Positions 5,773 to 28,875 of a stretch of DNA of 28,875 nt are shown one piece after another. The position numbers and the translations under genes were made by a program. Source of the DNA: a virus (lineage: Duplodnaviria; Caudoviricetes). Positions within the stretch are counted from its first letter, which is position 1. The number at the start of each line of letters is the position of its first letter. Under the pieces are notes generated by a model. That model had not been told where the DNA came from. It worked only from the letters and a program-made list of their open reading frames with translations, and searched no databases. The DNA lies in the IMG/VR virus record IMGVR_UViG_3300005573_000237, positions 1 through 28,875 of that record. One strand, 5' to 3'.

Positions 5773-6669
5773 TTAGTATGCTGCTATGTCGTCCTTGACC
5801 TCGACCGTTATCGTCTTAGGCTTGAGCCTCACGGTCTGCGTTAATACGTCTCCGGCGAAATCGACCTCGCCCTCCCATTCCACGAGGCAATCATCTAGCG
5901 TGAACTTGATGTAATCACTTGTGCTTCTCTGGAAGTTGATCACCGCATCGACGGTTGATTTGTTGAGCATCATGTCCATGAACGTGTAGTCCTCGAACAA
6001 TAGGTCTAGCTCGGCCTCGTATTCCGCGCCGGTCAGGGCGAATCCAGAGATGTAGTCGCCGCTTCTCGGCCTCTCCTCAAGATTGTTGTTCACGGTTATG
6101 CTCGCGGACGTGACTATCGCGTATGCGGTGCCGCCCACGCTGAACGTCATGTCGGTAAACTTGTATGGCGTCTTGCTCGGGATCGCGATGTTCGGGTCAG
6201 TGTATGGCGAGACCTTGGTCACCTGCTTAGCCCTGCAATCTAGGCTGACGGTCGCGATTCCATCCGCATCTACCGAGAACTTCATGCTGTCTACCAACAC
6301 GCCGACGGCCCTCTCGGCCACGCCTGATGCGCCTATCCTCGCACATTCAACTGTTATGCTTTTTAGCGATGTCCCGATCTCGATTGTGTGAGTGTATGGC
6401 GGGGCCGTGCCGGAGTTCGTCACCTTGCCGAACACGTATTTCAGGAACTTTCCCGTGAGCGGGTAAAACTCGATTGAGGGGGAGAAGTTCAGGCCTATCG
6501 GGAGCCTCGCCTGATAGACCCTGTCGCCTGCTCTTATGTCCTCTGCGACCAACTCGGGGCCGGCGTTGAACGTGGTGGCCAGCCCGAACACGTCGCTCAT
6601 GGTGGCGGCCGAGCCGTATGTTGTCTCCTCGCCGTAGTAGAGCTTCCTTACCTGAAACGTGCTGCTCAT
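5773..6669 (-). CDS. Major tail tube protein
   Basis: N-terminal YGEETTYG, YTHTI, SITVNNNLE; beta-rich; position in the tail operon. Confidence 0.82.
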   Translation of the reverse strand: MSSTFQVRKLYYGEETTYGSAATMSDVFGLATTFNAGPELVAEDIRAGDRVYQARLPIGLNFSPSIEFYPLTGKFLKYVFGKVTNSGTAPPYTHTIEIGTSLKSITVECARIGASGVAERAVGVLVDSMKFSVDADGIATVSLDCRAKQVTKVSPYTDPNIAIPSKTPYKFTDMTFSVGGTAYAIVTSASITVNNNLEERPRSGDYISGFALTGAEYEAELDLLFEDYTFMDMMLNKSTVDAVINFQRSTSDYIKFTLDDCLVEWEGEVDFAGDVLTQTVRLKPKTITVEVKDDIAAY

Positions 6670-7916
6670 GGCCTTTCAGCCTCGCCCCCGGTTTTTATTT
6701 CTGAAATGCTGTTGAACAATTCTAGCGTGAGGTCGTATGCGCTCTTGGCGTCAAGCAGCCCGGCGCCCGCGATGTTGCGCGAGTCGTAGACTATGGGCCA
6801 CGCCTCGCCGAATAGCTTGACCAGGCGCTCCAGCACGCTCGGCCTCTTCACGGCTTTTCTCTTGTAGACTATCTTCTTGTCGGCCTCGTAGACGATGGGG
6901 ATCGGCTTGGCCGAGAGGTGGAGCAATCTCCTGACCGCGACCGGCGACCTGAGAATGCTGTTCATTATCGCGGCTATGGACGTGGCCCATGGCGTGGCGA
7001 AGCTCGTGCCCTCAAGTAGCTCGTTGTCGAAGATGAAGACGCCGGGGGCCACGAGGTCTGGCTTGAACCTGCCGTCAAGTGTTGGGCCGCGCGAGGAGTA
7101 TTTCCAAATCCGGCCATAGGCGTCGGTCGCGCCGACCGTTATCGCGTTCTTGCTCGCGCCCGGCGACCCTATGGTGCAGAATGATGGGCCGCCGTTCCCC
7201 GCGGCGATGCATGTCGCGATCTTCTTTTCCTGAGCAAGATAGTTTACGTAAAGCGATAGGGGGTCTTCGCCGTCGCTCCAATACTCGCTCTGGATGCTCA
7301 TATTAACCGCGTGAACCCCCAGCTCTATGCATTTCTCGAGCGCCGAGATTAGCAGGTAGTCTGGGACGTCCTCGCCGATGAGCTGGATCACGCCTATCTC
7401 GGCCTTCGGCGCGAGGCGAAAAATAATCTCGTGAATGTAGCTGCCATGCTCCTCGCGATCCACGACGCTCATGTTGTGCATGCTGATCTTGAACGATGAT
7501 GGCGCGTCAGGCGATACGCCGGTGTCGATTATCGCGATCTTGGCGCCCTCGCCTTTCACGCCCTCGATCTGCAAGTCTATGAAGCGAGTGGTCTTCATCG
7601 CGTCATCAAACGTGCCGTATTTCTTGACCCCCTTGGCCACAGGCCTTACCTTGCCGGACATGAAGCGGAAGCTCATGCTCTTGCATATGTAATCGCCCTC
7701 GCCCTCCTTGACCTTCTTGAACGCCTCCTCGAGATCCTCGGTTTTCTCGATTTTCCCGGTCTTCCGGCATACCCAGAAGTATTTACCTTGCCTCTCGTCC
7801 TTCTTGACCAGGTATTCCCACTTCTCGCCGAACGGGCAGACCTCGCGGGAGCAGGCTAGTGGCACGCGCTTTCCGCAGAAGTATCGGCCATTAGACTTTA
7901 TGCGGTAGATGCACAT
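6666..7916 (-). CDS. S8 (subtilisin-family) serine protease with Cys-rich N-terminus
   Basis: IAIIDTG, EHGS, AAGNGG, SSRGPT..GRFKPDLVAPG, GTSFATP. Start moved to ATG 7916, which follows GGAGGTGG and the upstream stop. Confidence 0.9.
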   Translation of the reverse strand: MCIYRIKSNGRYFCGKRVPLACSREVCPFGEKWEYLVKKDERQGKYFWVCRKTGKIEKTEDLEEAFKKVKEGEGDYICKSMSFRFMSGKVRPVAKGVKKYGTFDDAMKTTRFIDLQIEGVKGEGAKIAIIDTGVSPDAPSSFKISMHNMSVVDREEHGSYIHEIIFRLAPKAEIGVIQLIGEDVPDYLLISALEKCIELGVHAVNMSIQSEYWSDGEDPLSLYVNYLAQEKKIATCIAAGNGGPSFCTIGSPGASKNAITVGATDAYGRIWKYSSRGPTLDGRFKPDLVAPGVFIFDNELLEGTSFATPWATSIAAIMNSILRSPVAVRRLLHLSAKPIPIVYEADKKIVYKRKAVKRPSVLERLVKLFGEAWPIVYDSRNIAGAGLLDAKSAYDLTLELFNSISEIKTGGEAERP

Positions 7917-7918
7917 CC

Positions 7919-8296
7919 CTATACCACCTCCTTGAGCACCAGAAGCATGGTCTTCCGGTAGACCCCCTCCTCCTCGATGTCTAGGGTGCGGTATATCGTG
8001 GCCGCCCACCAGCCATAATTCCTATAATGTTCTTGCCAATTCCCGAGAAGAGACTCAACTATCTTCTCATAGGCCTCATCCCTAGCCTTCGCGGATCTAT
8101 GCCAGATGTCTATCTGGAACTCGTATGCGCGGAGCGTCCTCTCGGTCTTAGCTATGACCTCGGCGCCACCGCCTTGATGCATTATCGTGATTAGCGGGAT
8201 GCTGTCGTTCGGCCCCATCCACCCCACCTTGACCGGGAGGCCGGTCGCGGCCTTGATCACGGCGCTCAGGTTCTCCACCACGCTTACCAATGTCAT
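7919..8296 (-). CDS. Putative tail terminator/completion protein
   Basis: 125 aa; P-x-I-T-I and YEFQIDIW pattern; synteny. Confidence 0.7.
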   Translation of the reverse strand: MTLVSVVENLSAVIKAATGLPVKVGWMGPNDSIPLITIMHQGGGAEVIAKTERTLRAYEFQIDIWHRSAKARDEAYEKIVESLLGNWQEHYRNYGWWAATIYRTLDIEEEGVYRKTMLLVLKEVV

Positions 8297-12215: not shown

Positions 12216-13514
12216 TTACCACTTCCAGACCGGGGTAATCATGACCCGGTCAAATGGCCTCGAGGCCGCCCATGCCGCGAGGGCTAGGCTTACCACGTAG
12301 TCGTCATGCGAGCCAGATGGCGCCTCATATTTTACGCGCCCACCCTTCTCCTGAACCCTTTGGAACTGCCTGAGTTGATTGATAAGCTCGGCGGCGTCCA
12401 CGGGGATGGTCACGCGCTTGGCCCGCATGTGATTATAGAGGTTTAGGATCATGGCCTCCTTGCTCGTGGCAGTGAACGTTACGCCCTCCACCTCAGGGTA
12501 TTCGCAGCTTAGAAAATCATGCATGGGGATTCCCAGCCCGGTCTTGTCTATCAAGACCTTTGCCGGCTTGAGCGCCTTGATGAGCATCTTGATGTATTCG
12601 AGTTGCTCGACCATGTCCACGCCCAGAAATTCCTTTAGAAAGATCACCTTCATCCCTTGATCAATTTTCTCGAGAACGGTTATGACCGTTGAATCACGAT
12701 AGCGGCCAAAATCTATGCCGATGAAAACCGGGTTATTGGTCTTATACTCATCAGGGATTACCAGCGAGTAATCCTCGGCACATGCCAAAATCATCTCATA
12801 CGGGAACAGCGCGTTCAGCTCATCCAGAAACTCCATTTCCATCTCCTGCGCCCACTCTAGCGGCGTCATGCTCGCCTTCATGCCTTCGAGATCACTTTCC
12901 GTGATGTGTGGGGCCATGCTATAATGAACTTTATGCTTGCTAAATGTCTCGCTCATCCACGCCTCATAAAACCACCCGCGCTTACCTTTCGGGGTTGAGA
13001 TGAGCGATAGGCGGCCCTCGCGGCCCGCTATCGTCGGGATGATCGCGGCCTTGATCTCGAAGTCGTTCTTGAACATGGCGGCCTCATCCACGTAGACGTG
13101 ATCCGCGCGGAATCCCCTGATCGCGTCCGGGTTGTTCGGCAGGCTGACTATACGGCTCCCGTTCTCGAACTCGACCTGGGTCTTCGTCTCGCTCAATGTC
13201 GCGTTAAAGGTATAGACATCGTCGCCGACCCTTATCCTGATGCCCTTCCACCTGTTAATATGCTCCTTAACTTTTCGGAAGAGCTCTAGCGACTGGCGCA
13301 TCGAGAAGCTCACGAGGAGTATCGTGAAATTCGGGTTGAGAAGCGAATCCAAAAAGCTCTCAAGCGCGATTAGGAATGAGCCTCCCACTGCCCTGGACTT
13401 GAGCATTATCCTGAACCGGCTATTATCGTCAAGCCATTTCTTCTGCCAATCGTATAGCTTGATATTTGTTTCAGCGGCCTCTACCACGAGCTGAGCCAGA
13501 AGACTCTTCCGCAT
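12216..13514 (-). CDS. terL: Terminase large subunit
   Basis: LYDWQ, KSRAVGGS (Walker A variant), VYVDEAA, ISTPKG, GIDFGRYRD, IDKTGLG, HDDYVVSLALA. Confidence 0.95.
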   Translation of the reverse strand: MRKSLLAQLVVEAAETNIKLYDWQKKWLDDNSRFRIMLKSRAVGGSFLIALESFLDSLLNPNFTILLVSFSMRQSLELFRKVKEHINRWKGIRIRVGDDVYTFNATLSETKTQVEFENGSRIVSLPNNPDAIRGFRADHVYVDEAAMFKNDFEIKAAIIPTIAGREGRLSLISTPKGKRGWFYEAWMSETFSKHKVHYSMAPHITESDLEGMKASMTPLEWAQEMEMEFLDELNALFPYEMILACAEDYSLVIPDEYKTNNPVFIGIDFGRYRDSTVITVLEKIDQGMKVIFLKEFLGVDMVEQLEYIKMLIKALKPAKVLIDKTGLGIPMHDFLSCEYPEVEGVTFTATSKEAMILNLYNHMRAKRVTIPVDAAELINQLRQFQRVQEKGGRVKYEAPSGSHDDYVVSLALAAWAASRPFDRVMITPVWKW

Positions 13515-13689
13515 ACTCGGTCAGCCGCTCGTTCAAGATCGCGATTAGATATTTAATCTCAGAGCGCTTGGCCCTAGCCCGCACGATAATCTCATCTCCA
13601 GCCTCCTCTATCATGATCGAGAGGCCTCCAAGCAATTGGCCTACCGGCTCTTTTGGCCCGCCGAAAACCGCCTTATGCTTGCCCGGCAT
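13471..13689 (-). CDS. Hypothetical protein
   Basis: Promoter motif 34 nt upstream; overlaps the terL start. Confidence 0.55.
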   Translation of the reverse strand: MPGKHKAVFGGPKEPVGQLLGGLSIMIEEAGDEIIVRARAKRSEIKYLIAILNERLTEYAEESSGSARGRGR

Positions 13690-13731
13690 GGCTCATCACT
13701 CTTTAGCGTCATAAAAAATCTGAGAGGTCGC

Positions 13732-14025
13732 TTATTTTCTCGCGGGCTTCTTTCTACGCCTCGGCTTCTCATCCTCGGTGATCTTCTTAATTGGTGCCTG
13801 AACCTCAATTGGCGATGGAGCTTGGGTCGGGGCCTCCTCGGCTTCTTCAACTATGTCTTGAAAGGCCACGGCAATAATTCTAGCAACCGAGACGGTTTCA
13901 TCGGGATTCACGACCTCGGCGTTCCAGATGGTCATGCCGCCTTGATCCATGCCGCCGACCTCGCCTTTCACCTTTCTGCCATCCTTCAGCTTGATTTCAA
14001 CCACTTGGCCTACCTGAAACTTCAT
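13732..14025 (-). CDS. Sm/LSm-fold-like protein with Pro/Lys-rich tail
   Basis: VVEIKLKDGRKVKGEVGGMDQGGMTIWNAEV resembles the Sm1 motif. Confidence 0.6.
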   Translation of the reverse strand: MKFQVGQVVEIKLKDGRKVKGEVGGMDQGGMTIWNAEVVNPDETVSVARIIAVAFQDIVEEAEEAPTQAPSPIEVQAPIKKITEDEKPRRRKKPARK

Positions 14026-14075
14026 GGCCACGCCTTTGTTTTGATGTTTTAAAGTCTTGAAACTCCCCTCAGGCC

Positions 14076-15950
14076 ATGAGCTTTTTCAAAGGCCTCGTGA
14101 GGTTGTTCACGAAGCAGGAGGAGAAGGGGCTCGCCGACATAATTTATGGCTGGAGGTGGGGCGAGCCGAAGCCGCTTGACCAAAAGCAACTACTCGACTT
14201 GGTTGAAGGAAATGATTATCTTAGGGCCGCCATCGAGGCCACGGTGAACGCTGCGCTCGTGAACGGCTGGATCATTGTCGGCGATAACGAGGCCGAGAAG
14301 AACAAGGTTGAGAGCTGGATAAGCGAGAACGAGGATGATTTCTATCTTTTCTTGCGTAACTTGCTTTACACAGCCAGGATTTTTGGCGAGGCCTACATCG
14401 AGGTTTACGCCGAGCCGGTTTTCAAGGTTCTCGACACATGGAGCATGCAAGTCATCCGTGATGAATACGGTCGTATCACAGGTTACGTTCAGAGGATCGC
14501 GGGCCGCGAGGTAAGATTTGAGCCGAATGAGGTCGTGAGAATCGTTCTTCATCCGCTTGGCACCCGGGCCTATGGGTCGCCGATAACCGCCACGCTCAGG
14601 AGAACCTTAGAGGGCCAGATGTATGCTGAGTTGTTCATTAGGGATGCATTCATGCGGAAAGGCGTCTTGAGCAAGGCATTCGTGATGAAATCCGGCGGCG
14701 AGGAGGACTTCAAGCGCCTCATGGAGGTGATTAATAGCTCGAGCCCGGGATCGAGCCTAATAATCAAGGGCGACATTGAAATACAGGATCTCGGCCATCC
14801 ATTCCGTGAATTGGAAATTCTTGAGTTGTTGCGCGAGTATAGGCAGAAGATCATAAGCGTCTCCGGGGTGCCGCCGATATTGCTTGGCCTTGAGGGCGGC
14901 ACCAATCTCGAGACATCGCGAAACCAGATTAATAGCTTCGTGATGATGGTTGAGAGCCTGCAGAGGATCATTAGCGCGGGGGTAACCGAGGCCATAAGGA
15001 GAAGGTTAGGCGTTAAGAGCATCAGGTTCATGCTTCAGGCTTGGACGAACCCGGAGCAGGAGACTCGGCTCCATGTCATGAGGGTTCAGGCCGGCATCGA
15101 GACGATTAACGAGGCGAGGAGGGCGCTCGGCCTAGAGGAGCTTGACCACCCGATAGCCAACATACCGATTCCATTCCTGCAGATTGCGGCGCGCGGCGGC
15201 TTCACGGAGCTCGACATCGAGACCGCGATAGGCCAATTACTAGCCCAGAGCGGCCAAGCCGTGCCGGAGAAGTCTCTAGTCAAGCAGGCGGATTATGATG
15301 AGTATGACCAAGAGGTCTTGAAAATTGAGAAGCGGTTGAAGAGGGAGCTGAGGAGCTTTTTTCGTAAAATAGTGAATGATGATTCGCCTAATTACCGCGC
15401 CAAGTGGGAGCCGCAGGTCAAGGATGTCTTGAGGCGATACTTGCTCTACTCGGCCCTGCAAGGAATCTTTTACGTTGATGGCCTCTCGACCGCGCCGCCG
15501 AATATCTCGCTCGCCGAGAGGGCTGTGAACAAGATCCTGCCGGTCTTTCTCGATGATTTCTTCATGGTGGTTGCGGATAAGAAGGCTGGATTAGTTAAGC
15601 CATCAAAGCCGGCGCGCAATTATCGGACCTTATTCAAGGCGGGCTATGATGAGGAGGAGGGCGAGGTTACGGAGGAGGATCTTTATCCGGCGCAGCGCCT
15701 CGATTATGAGGGGAGGGTAGATGCTATTGCGCAGGTCTCGGTCTGGGGCATCTTTAACATGCTCATCGCGTGGTCTGCCCGCGACGCGGGCTTTCAAAAG
15801 GTCGTCTGGGTCACTAGAATGGATGAGAAGACATGTTCAGAATGCGCCTCGCTTGACGGCATGGAGTGGAGCGTGGGCGAGCTTGACTCCGCCGGGTTCA
15901 TGTCTCCTCCAATCCATCCCAATTGCCGATGCCGCCTAATCGTGGCGTAA
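14076..15950 (+). CDS. Portal protein fused to a MuF (SPP1 gp7-like) domain
   Basis: FGEAYIE, GRITGYVQ, FEPNEVV, YGSPI, GVPPILLG, TINEARRALGL; C-terminal WVTRMDEKTCSECASLDG...PPIHPNCRC. Confidence 0.93.
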   Translation: MSFFKGLVRLFTKQEEKGLADIIYGWRWGEPKPLDQKQLLDLVEGNDYLRAAIEATVNAALVNGWIIVGDNEAEKNKVESWISENEDDFYLFLRNLLYTARIFGEAYIEVYAEPVFKVLDTWSMQVIRDEYGRITGYVQRIAGREVRFEPNEVVRIVLHPLGTRAYGSPITATLRRTLEGQMYAELFIRDAFMRKGVLSKAFVMKSGGEEDFKRLMEVINSSSPGSSLIIKGDIEIQDLGHPFRELEILELLREYRQKIISVSGVPPILLGLEGGTNLETSRNQINSFVMMVESLQRIISAGVTEAIRRRLGVKSIRFMLQAWTNPEQETRLHVMRVQAGIETINEARRALGLEELDHPIANIPIPFLQIAARGGFTELDIETAIGQLLAQSGQAVPEKSLVKQADYDEYDQEVLKIEKRLKRELRSFFRKIVNDDSPNYRAKWEPQVKDVLRRYLLYSALQGIFYVDGLSTAPPNISLAERAVNKILPVFLDDFFMVVADKKAGLVKPSKPARNYRTLFKAGYDEEEGEVTEEDLYPAQRLDYEGRVDAIAQVSVWGIFNMLIAWSARDAGFQKVVWVTRMDEKTCSECASLDGMEWSVGELDSAGFMSPPIHPNCRCRLIVA

Positions 15951-21690: not shown

Positions 21691-21765
21691 GAGGTGTTTA
21701 GAACACCTCTCCACACCTTTCCACACCTCACATGTGAGGTGCTCTCCACACCTCTGCACACCTCT
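21691..21765. repeat. ACACCT iteron-like array with 18-bp palindrome
   Basis: ACACCT at 21703, 21713, 21723, 21748, 21758; inverted copies at 21692 and 21737; CACCTCACATGTGAGGTG at 21724-21741. Confidence 0.85.
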
Positions 21766-21800
21766 CATGCTCTAAACCCTTCAGGAAGGAGGGTAAAACA

Positions 21801-21971
21801 ATGGGCGATAAAGCCAAGGTAAAGGTTTACTTCTATCTAGACGCGGATGATTACCTTATCCTTAAAAAGCTAGCGGAAGAAAAGCGCATTCCATTCTCAA
21901 TCATGTGCCGCATAATCATATCCGATTATCTTTCTCAGCTTAAAAATGGAAATCGGGCCGTCATTGGTTAG
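21801..21971 (+). CDS. CopG-like RHH protein (56 aa)
   Basis: Below the ORF-track cutoff: MGDKAKVKVYFYLDADDYLILKKLAEEKRIPFSIMCRIIISDYL...; GGAGGG RBS. Confidence 0.78.
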   Translation: MGDKAKVKVYFYLDADDYLILKKLAEEKRIPFSIMCRIIISDYLSQLKNGNRAVIG

Positions 21972-24606: not shown

Positions 24607-24800
24607 TGCCCAAGATGATAGGCGTCAAGGTCATCAGGCTCGAGGCCGACTTCCCGAGCATCGAGAGACTTGACGAGCTATGCGAAAGACAGGCCAAGGA
24701 AGAAGCAAGGCAAGAAGATCTTGGTAAAAGCGCCCGAGACATCGCCAAGATTGAAAATATAGTTCGGGAGGTGATCCGGGGATGGCGAGCTTCAAGGTAA
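24603..24800 (+). CDS. Hypothetical protein
   Basis: GAGGTGG RBS; start overlaps the upstream stop. Confidence 0.6.
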   Translation: MMPKMIGVKVIRLEADFPSIERLDELCERQAKEEARQEDLGKSARDIAKIENIVREVIRGWRASR

Positions 24801-25417
24801 AACTGTTCTTCAAGGCGCCGCTCAGGGCCACGAAACCGATTAGCGAGTCAATGCTTGTTGAGAGGCATCTAGAGGCCACGAAAGGCCGTATACTCCAATA
24901 TCTCAGGGCCGTGAAGGCAAGCGAGGACGAGGAAAAGCTCCGCCGGGAGATGGAGAAGTGGCTCGAGGGCTTGCTAAACGTATTCCCCCGCAAGATCCTG
25001 AAGAATGACGGCCACGAGATCGAGCAAATAGCATTTCCCGCATCATGGATCTACGGCGTCTTGGAGGAGCGGGCGGCGGCCCTGAAGATCAAGGGGATAA
25101 CCCGAGGGCTGATCAAGAACGCGGTCGAGGTGAGGCCATACCTGATAGGATTGCGGAAAAACGGGAGGCCCGCGACCATAGAGGACATAGTCTTCCAGGA
25201 TGACACGGTGGTGAGCGCGGACAAGTTCGGCAAGCGCACCGCGCTCAAGCGGTTCGAGGCCCTGCTCCCGCCACTCGAAACCCAGACATTCTACATAAAC
25301 GTGTATGCGCCCGCGATCAAGTTGGAAGACCTCGAGAAGCTGCTCGAGTTCGGGAGGCTTGGCGCGAGCCGAGGACAAGGATACGGCGCGTTTCACGCCC
25401 GGATCACGGAGGCATAA
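24782..25417 (+). CDS. Stand-alone RAMP (Cas7/Csm3-like) protein
   Basis: N-terminal strand FKVKLFFKAPLRAT, IAFPASWIYGVLEE (cf. IPGSSIKGxxR), RFEALLPP...FYINV, G-rich loop LGASRGQGYGAF; GGAGGTGA RBS. Confidence 0.82.
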   Translation: MASFKVKLFFKAPLRATKPISESMLVERHLEATKGRILQYLRAVKASEDEEKLRREMEKWLEGLLNVFPRKILKNDGHEIEQIAFPASWIYGVLEERAAALKIKGITRGLIKNAVEVRPYLIGLRKNGRPATIEDIVFQDDTVVSADKFGKRTALKRFEALLPPLETQTFYINVYAPAIKLEDLEKLLEFGRLGASRGQGYGAFHARITEA

Positions 25418-25427
25418 AAATGATTCG

Positions 25428-25569
25428 ATCCCTCCCAGCGGCGGGAAAATCCTTTCATTTCTTTATATTTTATTTTCTTACTTTCGCTTATATTCCGTTC
25501 TCGTTCCTTTCATTATTTTGTATTTGGATTGCGTTCTATTCATTTTCTTCCCGATACCGCTGGAGGGAT
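25428..25569 (+). ncRNA. Putative structured RNA: GC-rich closing stem around 20 pentamer units (NN + U-rich triplet)
   Basis: ATCCCT-C-CCAGCGG-CGGGAA pairs with TTCCCG-ATA-CCGCTGG-AGGGAT; T at every fifth position from 25454 to 25549 (20 of 20). Strand assumed from operon direction. Confidence 0.7.
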
Positions 25570-25574
25570 GAGGC

Positions 25575-26018
25575 CTGCCAAGCAAGACAAGAAAGTGCCT
25601 AATCATCTACAACTCTCTTGATGATGACTTGGGCGAGATCACGCGCGAAAGAATCTTAGAGGCCCGGAGGCGCGTTTACGCCTGCTTTTACATCGCCTCC
25701 CTCCCGTTCATTATCCAAGCGCTCGTGCTCGCGAGGAAGAAAGAATGTGAGGTCAAGGCAATTCTAAGTAATGACCCGATGAACGCCTCAACCGCGACAT
25801 ATCTAGAGTCTCATGGCATCCCAGTCAAGATCTGGAGGCAGGATAGGGGCATAATGCACATCAAGATGCTCATCTGCGATGACGTGGCCCTGCTCGGCTC
25901 TTATAACCCGACGTATTACGCCTCGAGCTTCAACGTGGAGCTCCTAATCGAGATACGCGATAAGGTGGTTGTAGATGATCTAGCAGCCTTCTTCATGCGA
26001 CTCTGGAGAATGTGCTAG
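25575..26018 (+). CDS. Single-HKD phospholipase D-family nuclease
   Basis: MHIKMLICD (HxKx4D) and GSYN. Frame is open from 25572; CTG 25575 is well spaced from GGAGG; TTG 25629 is the alternative start. Confidence 0.85.
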   Translation: MPSKTRKCLIIYNSLDDDLGEITRERILEARRRVYACFYIASLPFIIQALVLARKKECEVKAILSNDPMNASTATYLESHGIPVKIWRQDRGIMHIKMLICDDVALLGSYNPTYYASSFNVELLIEIRDKVVVDDLAAFFMRLWRMC

Positions 26019-28753: not shown

Positions 28754-28807
28754 AATCAGGGTGAGCTGAGGTCATCATCATGTCAGATACTGCAGCTCTC
28801 ATCATGC
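28754..28807 (-). ncRNA. Archaeal box C/D sRNA
   Basis: ATGATGA-gagctgcagtat-CTGA-catg-ATGATGA-cctcagctcacc-CTGA: four consensus boxes and two 12-nt guides. Confidence 0.88.
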
Positions 28808-28875
28808 TCAAGGTTAATCTTGTATCCGGCTTCGGAAAAACCTTGCGCACCTATTCCTTCGGGCTTCTCGGCAGT

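Follow-up and report, generated by a model that had tools for sequence, protein, structure and literature searches.

A T-rich pentamer array beside a predicted RAMP-fold gene of an archaeal virus: a candidate VIPR-type guide RNA within a bulge-helix-bulge-shaped stem

The window analysed here, a stretch of viral DNA of 28,875 nucleotides, contains an array of twenty in-phase pentamers. With a probability of about 0.6, this array specifies a VIPR-type guide that has UU where known VIPR guides have GG, acts together with the RAMP-fold protein of the gene upstream, and is cut at its closing stem by the host EndA. The VIPR systems, composed of Vipr and vrRNA, consist of a lone RAMP gene in a virus, accompanied by a pentamer array of the GGY/NN type (10.64898/2026.04.26.720920). 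The interpretation draws on the period of the array, its adjacency to the gene, the variability of its NN dinucleotides, the replacement of arrays among relatives, the geometry of the stem in five arrays, and the endonuclease genes of the likely host, all of which were observed. Its parts are not equally firm. That the element is a VIPR-like guide is very probable. Provided that it is one, we favour processing by EndA, and provided that it is cut, closure into a circle would be the expected, if not the assured, outcome. More tentatively, the VIPR guides of archaeal viruses might pose as tRNA-type introns, which EndA and a ligase would turn into circular, heat-stable guides of ~100 nt, with a G-free UU scaffold and a free third base that may also read the target. 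The link to a RAMP gene and the splice geometry go beyond the initial annotation of this DNA, and a bulge-helix-bulge-shaped stem around what appears to be a VIPR-type guide is new here.

The features of the locus are the following:

24782-25417, + strand: lone Vipr-like gene, whose protein (211 aa) is predicted to have a RAMP fold and carries a glycine-rich loop at its C-terminal end, from the ORF, a profile and an AF2 model
25428-25441, + strand: outer closing stem, 5' arm (6 bp, one bulged C, 7 bp)
25442-25448, + strand: 5' half of the motif, a 4-nt helix strand followed by AAA; AAA in 5/5 complete arrays
25451-25550, + strand: twenty pentamers of a variable NN and a TT-containing triplet (predicted guide region), from the period-5 test; replaced in relatives
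25550-25556, + strand: 3' half of the motif, a 4-nt helix strand followed by the 3-nt bulge ATA; only a 3-nt bulge fits, in 5/5 arrays
25557-25569, + strand: outer closing stem, 3' arm
25629-26018, + strand: PLD-like gene 3' of the array (PF13091, E 1e-16)

The pentamer array

The twenty pentamers occupy 25451-25550 with exactly the letters that the initial annotation had given, and a recount of T by pentamer position returned its values of 8, 4, 16, 20 and 11 of 20, so that position 4 is T in all 20 pentamers. TT lies within every triplet (TTT 7, TTA 4, TTC 4, GTT 2, ATT 2, TTG 1), again as described. A comparison with shuffled sequences had been proposed as a check. The period-5 base-by-phase chi-square of the array is 46.9, a value that none of 20,000 mononucleotide shuffles reaches, nor any of 20,000 dinucleotide shuffles. 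By the same statistic, no other period between 2 and 12 is significant in the window array except period 10 (p about 0.0002), which is a harmonic of period 5. The array is also the sole one in the window with a run of at least 8 in-phase identical bases. Searches of the window against Rfam matched 0 families and a tRNA search found 0 genes, while a sigma-70 and terminator scan stayed at chance level with models that are ill-suited to archaea.

Within the arrays, some units recur. A 9-base stretch is present twice in the window array (at 25451 and 25506) and an 11-base stretch twice in the array of a related locus (L002:510-630). Such recurrence may hint at copying or recombination within arrays.

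The adjacent RAMP-fold gene

The array starts 34 nt past the end of the 211-aa ORF. This ORF has no match in Pfam, and a phmmer search of the protein against the PDB returned 0 hits. The AlphaFold (AF2) model of the protein has a pLDDT of 86.8, and in a Foldseek search against the PDB all of the matches listed are CRISPR effector complexes or their subunits, of types III, IV and VII (best E 1.4e-6, TM about 0.5). The model also matches lone viral proteins (viral solo RAMPs), one of which is named RAMP, and the protein has an Atlas score of 0.96 to viral clusters. When a profile of the family (A2, 26 members) was compared with the PDB at E up to 10, 12 sequences were found, all of them Csm3, Csm4, Cas7, Cmr6 or Cas6 (E 0.016-2), and both displayed alignments fall within the glycine-rich loop. 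Judged by its model, the protein is predicted to have a RAMP fold with an RRM core, a thumb and a glycine-rich loop.

The protein has 5 close homologues; with E up to 0.001, the family extends to 23 representatives. Homologue loci were absent from viral_contigs and genome_contigs. The profile search of genomes found 2 of 76 in the class of G001 (one a fragment, the other with the G-loop only) and a single one among the 401 genomes of the G004 class; there was no homologue in the 5 single genomes searched, and no Vipr-like homologue in the related proviruses searched. Among the 26 ORFs of the window that were scanned, no cas family was detected at E below 0.1, and the window holds no CRISPR array, which makes this a minimal viral locus. 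The PLD-like gene downstream of the array is a possible accessory gene; at the corresponding place in L002, L003 and L004 there are other genes, and no conserved accessory gene was seen in these loci.

Two observations concern family members elsewhere. Residues 207-254 of P0016 form a Phe/Leu-rich tail, which looks like read-through of the gene into a T-rich array. In locus L080 (G061:C26), a contig of 522 nt, the start of a close homologue leads directly into CRISPR repeats, a junction that was probably created by assembly through a spacer.

Arrays in related loci

Six homologue loci were available. L001 corresponds to the window and L005 breaks off within the gene, so that L002, L003, L004 and L006 are the informative ones. 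Clear TT-anchored arrays lie directly beside the gene in three of these four, namely L002, L003 and L004, with two arrays upstream of the gene in L003 and one on each side of it in L004. At L006, where the homologue stands at 41%, there is only a weak pyrimidine-rich run, without a motif of the bulge-helix-bulge type.

Base usage was determined on a pool of 116 units from eight segments, with registers and array ends set by hand; L002 entered as two parts divided at a break within it, the second L003 array entered without its phase-slipped rest, and an orphan array at L238 was counted as well. At positions 1 and 2, each of the four bases occurs (T in 29 and 31 of 116 units, respectively). T occupies position 4 in 111 units, with G there in 2, and it is found at position 3 in 66 units and at position 5 in 87. 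On the other strand of the arrays, the fixed base is accordingly A.

In close relatives, the array is replaced wholesale. One contig of sequencing run X5 keeps both flanks (39 differences in 773 nt and 37 in 376 nt, or 90-95% identity), and in its array 147 different letters take the place of 98 in the window, a gain of 49 nt. Runs X6 and X7 diverge from the window at or within the array and continue with other T-rich letters, and in none of four runs does a contig cover window positions 25486-25537. The initial annotation had proposed a comparison with relatives, and its outcome is the one expected of a non-coding RNA: phase and stem are kept, and NN is changed. Replacement of whole arrays between fixed stems in close relatives offers a handle on guide acquisition.

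More distant family members extend the picture. At L082:500-1250 (G191:C50), a distant homologue is followed by several long G-containing pentamer arrays, and at L260 a distant family member lies beside another such array; none was seen at L261, which also encodes a distant member. The G-containing arrays beside distant members link the clade to ordinary VIPR. The putative tie of the protein itself to the Vipr clade is an indirect one, which passes through these homologues.

An orphan TT-anchored array of 21-26 units was found at L238:4375-4505 (G059:C24), inside a GC stem that is imperfect. It lies about 700 nt from the integrase of an integrated element, in which no Vipr-like gene was found. 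In a recent report, orphan vrRNAs are described for SUSP1 satellites of E. coli (10.64898/2026.10.15.759431), and the parallel suggests that the L238 array belongs to the same kind of virus-satellite conflict.

The closing stem

The stem of 6+7+6 bp that had been noted around the array is present. Folding recovered the stem, whereas the energy of the 161-nt piece as a whole turned out to be ordinary (z = -1.29 for the + strand and -1.85 for the - strand). The stem was compared in the five complete arrays, those of the window, L002, L003 and L004 (two), which belong to four contigs of a single clade and do not count as independent cases. In all five, the arms have the same order: outer stem, 4-base strand, AAA, array, complementary 4 bases, ANA bulge, outer stem. 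The 3' bulge reads ATA, AGA or AAA. The 4-bp helix has three different sequences over the five arrays, all of them Watson-Crick paired, and the outer stems (7-11 pairs) are unrelated in sequence and pair throughout. Bulge sizes of 0-6 were tried on the 3' side, and only 3 fits, in each of the five arrays. Folds of bulge-helix-bulge shape occur 49 times in the window by chance; two of these have ANA bulges, one of them being that of the array. The flank shuffle (0-1 of 3000) indicates the existence of a stem only. The closing stem of the five complete arrays appears to have the geometry of the archaeal bulge-helix-bulge. A kink-turn was also weighed, but inspection by eye spoke against it, as canonical pairs flank the bulge on both sides.

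Since this geometry is combined with EndA in the likely host, the guide is probably excised by EndA. The EndA cut falls after the second base of a bulge. With cuts at these places, the freed piece would extend from 25448 to 25555 and measure 108 nt, and the other four arrays would yield pieces of 132, 121, 95 and 114 nt. The mature product is therefore predicted to be nearer to 108 nt than to the ~140 nt that had been suggested initially.

The alternative that survives best also assumes a VIPR-type guide on a U scaffold, but takes the stem for a mere protective clamp or loading handle, or for a structure cut once at the 3' bulge, so that the RNA would stay linear and unspliced. When AAA pairs with UU, a helix of 6 bp is formed at -27.5 kcal/mol, as against -21.2 kcal/mol for the two-bulge form, a difference of 6.3 kcal/mol in the nearest-neighbour model. 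The inner helix next to AAA has a length of 1-2 bp only. For both reasons, perhaps only the 3' site is real. The vrRNAs described so far are linear molecules that carry a structured tail at the 3' end, and L006 is without the motif, which also agrees with a clamp. However, a plain clamp needs no 3' bulge of exactly three nucleotides and the form ANA, four pairs away from an invariant AAA, and yet this arrangement recurs in 5/5 arrays with otherwise unrelated stems. We consider the clamp unlikely and prefer excision of the guide by EndA.

Repeat scaffold and targets

The fixed part of the pentamer is most aptly written as TT with a single free base, which may precede or follow it. A unit that lacks T at position 3 as well as at position 5 is rare, with only 2 cases in 95 units (Fisher p 2e-5) and 2 in the larger pool of 116. 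The free base of the triplet takes all four letters, unlike the Y of GGY. Both properties could be taken to support a guide with another code, in which UU would be a two-base spacer and the three other bases would read the target without gaps, or in which the target would be RNA. Against this speaks that the decoded arrays are no more coding-like than shuffles of the third base (p 0.43), in a test of low power with hand-chosen registers and ends, and we regard the other code as rather improbable. Protein-like readings of decoded arrays, which had been noticed by eye, were dropped on the same result. This result likewise gives no support to the idea that the free base copies the skipped base of the target, although the test is too weak to dismiss it: a shuffle of whole units gave p 0.45.

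For the VIPR-type guide that we favour, targets were sought with a one-base skip in 282 sequences (2.22 Mb), which comprise related proviruses, elements that carry an integrase, one IMG/VR virus, and 0.38 Mb of G066, a genome of about 1.3 Mb. The best site for the window guide agrees at 25 of 40 NN positions, and shuffled guides reach 25-27; the other five guides behave alike. No target was detected under skips of 0-2 in 2.2 Mb or a skip of 3 in 0.8 Mb, and alternative registers gave none. There was likewise none in the window itself (best 23/40 with a one-base skip), in the homologue loci, in 73 CRISPR loci, or in sets of 0.81 Mb and 1.87 Mb, and exact half-patterns of 10 units, with no mismatch allowed, had 0 occurrences in viral_contigs. 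The failure to find a target counts against the favoured reading. The DNA searched in this way is small in amount and stems from outside the community of the virus.

It is highly improbable that the element is something other than a guide, be it a U-rich terminator region of low complexity, a gene for a short peptide or a structural element of the DNA. Such readings could appeal to the T-rich tracts that often follow genes in archaea and to a 60-aa ORF (25420-25602) that spans the array. Against them stand the strict 5-base phase and the occurrence of arrays both upstream and downstream of the gene. Conservation of the peptide had been set against an RNA by the initial annotation, but a stop-free + frame exists in just 2/5 elements, and the array swap of +49 nt breaks the frame.

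The virus and its likely host

The window is a temperate tailed archaeal virus, with genes for capsid, portal, terminase, tail tube, tape measure and a tyrosine integrase. A subtilase-family gene is present among the tail genes, and the terminase and portal genes are divergently transcribed (window 6666-8009, 12216-15950).

The last 121 bases of the window (28755-28875) are identical to part of G066:C91 (locus L174), where they run across the end of a 169-aa gene into the gap that follows; this gene sits behind an acetolactate synthase-like gene, so labelled from its translation. With its called start at 28850, the integrase ORF begins within this host-derived segment. G066 belongs to the same genus as G003 (locus L026, Ca. 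Wolframiiraptor sinensis), a group whose order we take to be Caldarchaeales. The capsid protein has matches in 20 of 76 genomes of the class of the likely host, 17 of them strong, and 9 of the 10 sequencing runs that contain parts of the locus are labelled as hot-spring metagenomes. CRISPR spacers that match the virus are present in the six runs compared. None of 532 spacers from named genomes matches the window beyond 16 nt, so that the CRISPR repeat alone leaves the host unfixed. The tRNA-splicing endonuclease family PF01974 was found in all five genomes searched, with two copies in G066, and the host of the virus is likely to encode this enzyme.

One host CRISPR spacer, from run X5, covers window positions 25561-25593 and thus the 3' stem arm and flank. 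Further spacers match the RAMP-fold gene and the PLD gene.

Comparison with known systems and possible mode of action

The locus resembles VIPR in having a lone viral RAMP-fold gene of ~210 aa without a CRISPR array, next to pentamers with a fixed triplet and a variable NN. As in VIPR, array copies occur upstream and downstream of the gene, and orphan copies in integrated elements. The differences concern the fixed bases, which are UU and one free base here, as opposed to GGY or the further vrRNA motifs NNNGG, YNNNG and NNNNG (10.64898/2026.04.26.720920), and the number of units, which is 17-24 here and 9-16 in VIPR. Moreover, the array is enclosed by a two-armed stem, whereas the vrRNA of VIPR is capped by a 3' tail or pseudoknot, and no conserved accessory (vap) gene was seen. 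The locus may work in a VIPR-like manner, but lacks the VIPR features GGY and a 3' tail with 9-16 units, and is therefore better viewed as a variant than as a plain member. Non-canonical VIPR-like arrays of the GAC/NN, CAC/NN, WGT/NN and TGH/NN types are described in the accessible text of another report (10.64898/2026.10.21.760802). As here, the fixed triplet varies in these arrays and a Vipr-like fold stays adjacent. That text names neither a G-free, U-only scaffold nor a bulge-helix-bulge; the figure that collects all motifs of the same report (Fig. S10) may hold a U-only form.

With the archaeal EndA introns, the element shares a 4-bp helix, a 3-nt bulge on the 3' strand and a flanking outer helix, and possibly the second 3-nt bulge with its inner helix (PMC4090602, PMC12558985). 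The insert of 95-132 nt compares with 11-129 nt for archaeal tRNA introns, which are circularised once excised, and one of which, that of tRNA-Trp, contains a nested C/D box RNA (PMC4090602, PMC12558985). The first report states that the two-subunit EndA accepts relaxed bulge-helix-bulge forms (PMC4090602), and the second that tRNA introns and pre-rRNA are cut by EndA and then ligated into circles, and that circular omega-RNAs of archaea have no bulge-helix-bulge motif (PMC12558985). Here, unlike in the EndA introns, an intergenic RNA of a virus carries the motif, the product is predicted to be the insert itself, and the inner helix has only 1-2 bp. The arrangement is also reminiscent of the vrRNA arrays of VIPR types I and V, which are interspersed with hammerheads, in that a dedicated RNA structure releases each guide from a longer transcript. 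Types I and V use self-cleaving ribozymes for this step, whereas a site for a host enzyme is predicted here. In the literature covered, largely main texts of openly available papers, we found no viral guide RNA with a bulge-helix-bulge motif, and the texts of the VIPR papers contain no bulge terms.

We propose that the array RNA would be transcribed from the + strand, with the RAMP-fold gene or behind it. Host EndA would cut at both bulges and release the 108-nt piece, which a host ligase may seal into a heat-stable circle, as happens with tRNA introns. One protomer would then bind each pentamer, gripping the U-rich triplet and exposing the NN dinucleotide. By analogy with the SUSP1 VIPR, for which silencing by a guide whose NN read DNA with a one-base skip is reported (10.64898/2026.04.26.720927), the exposed dinucleotides may read double-stranded DNA in the same manner and silence a rival virus or satellite.

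VIPR is a proposed ancestor of the CRISPR effectors, and the locus may bear on how its guides are matured and rewritten. A U-only scaffold, as predicted for the guide, would provide a repeat code without any need for the guanine contacts of the SUSP1 structure. If a splice motif does surround the guide, a maturation route would have been borrowed from host tRNA splicing, and a thermophile would contain naturally circular guides. The proposal makes sharp predictions, which are the cut sites, the 108-nt product and a read across the junction. If it is correct, the protein could also serve as a programmable DNA binder that is small, probably stable to heat, and equipped with a long guide.

Another repeat is present elsewhere in the window. 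The top period-5 signal of the whole-window scan comes from positions 21706-21770, in an intergenic gap before the ORF at 21801, where a period-10 repeat (CCACACCTCT-like) has an inverted copy mid-way. This repeat is possibly an origin or operator. In L004, the gap that matches this one contains a short and different pentamer run (at about 2456).
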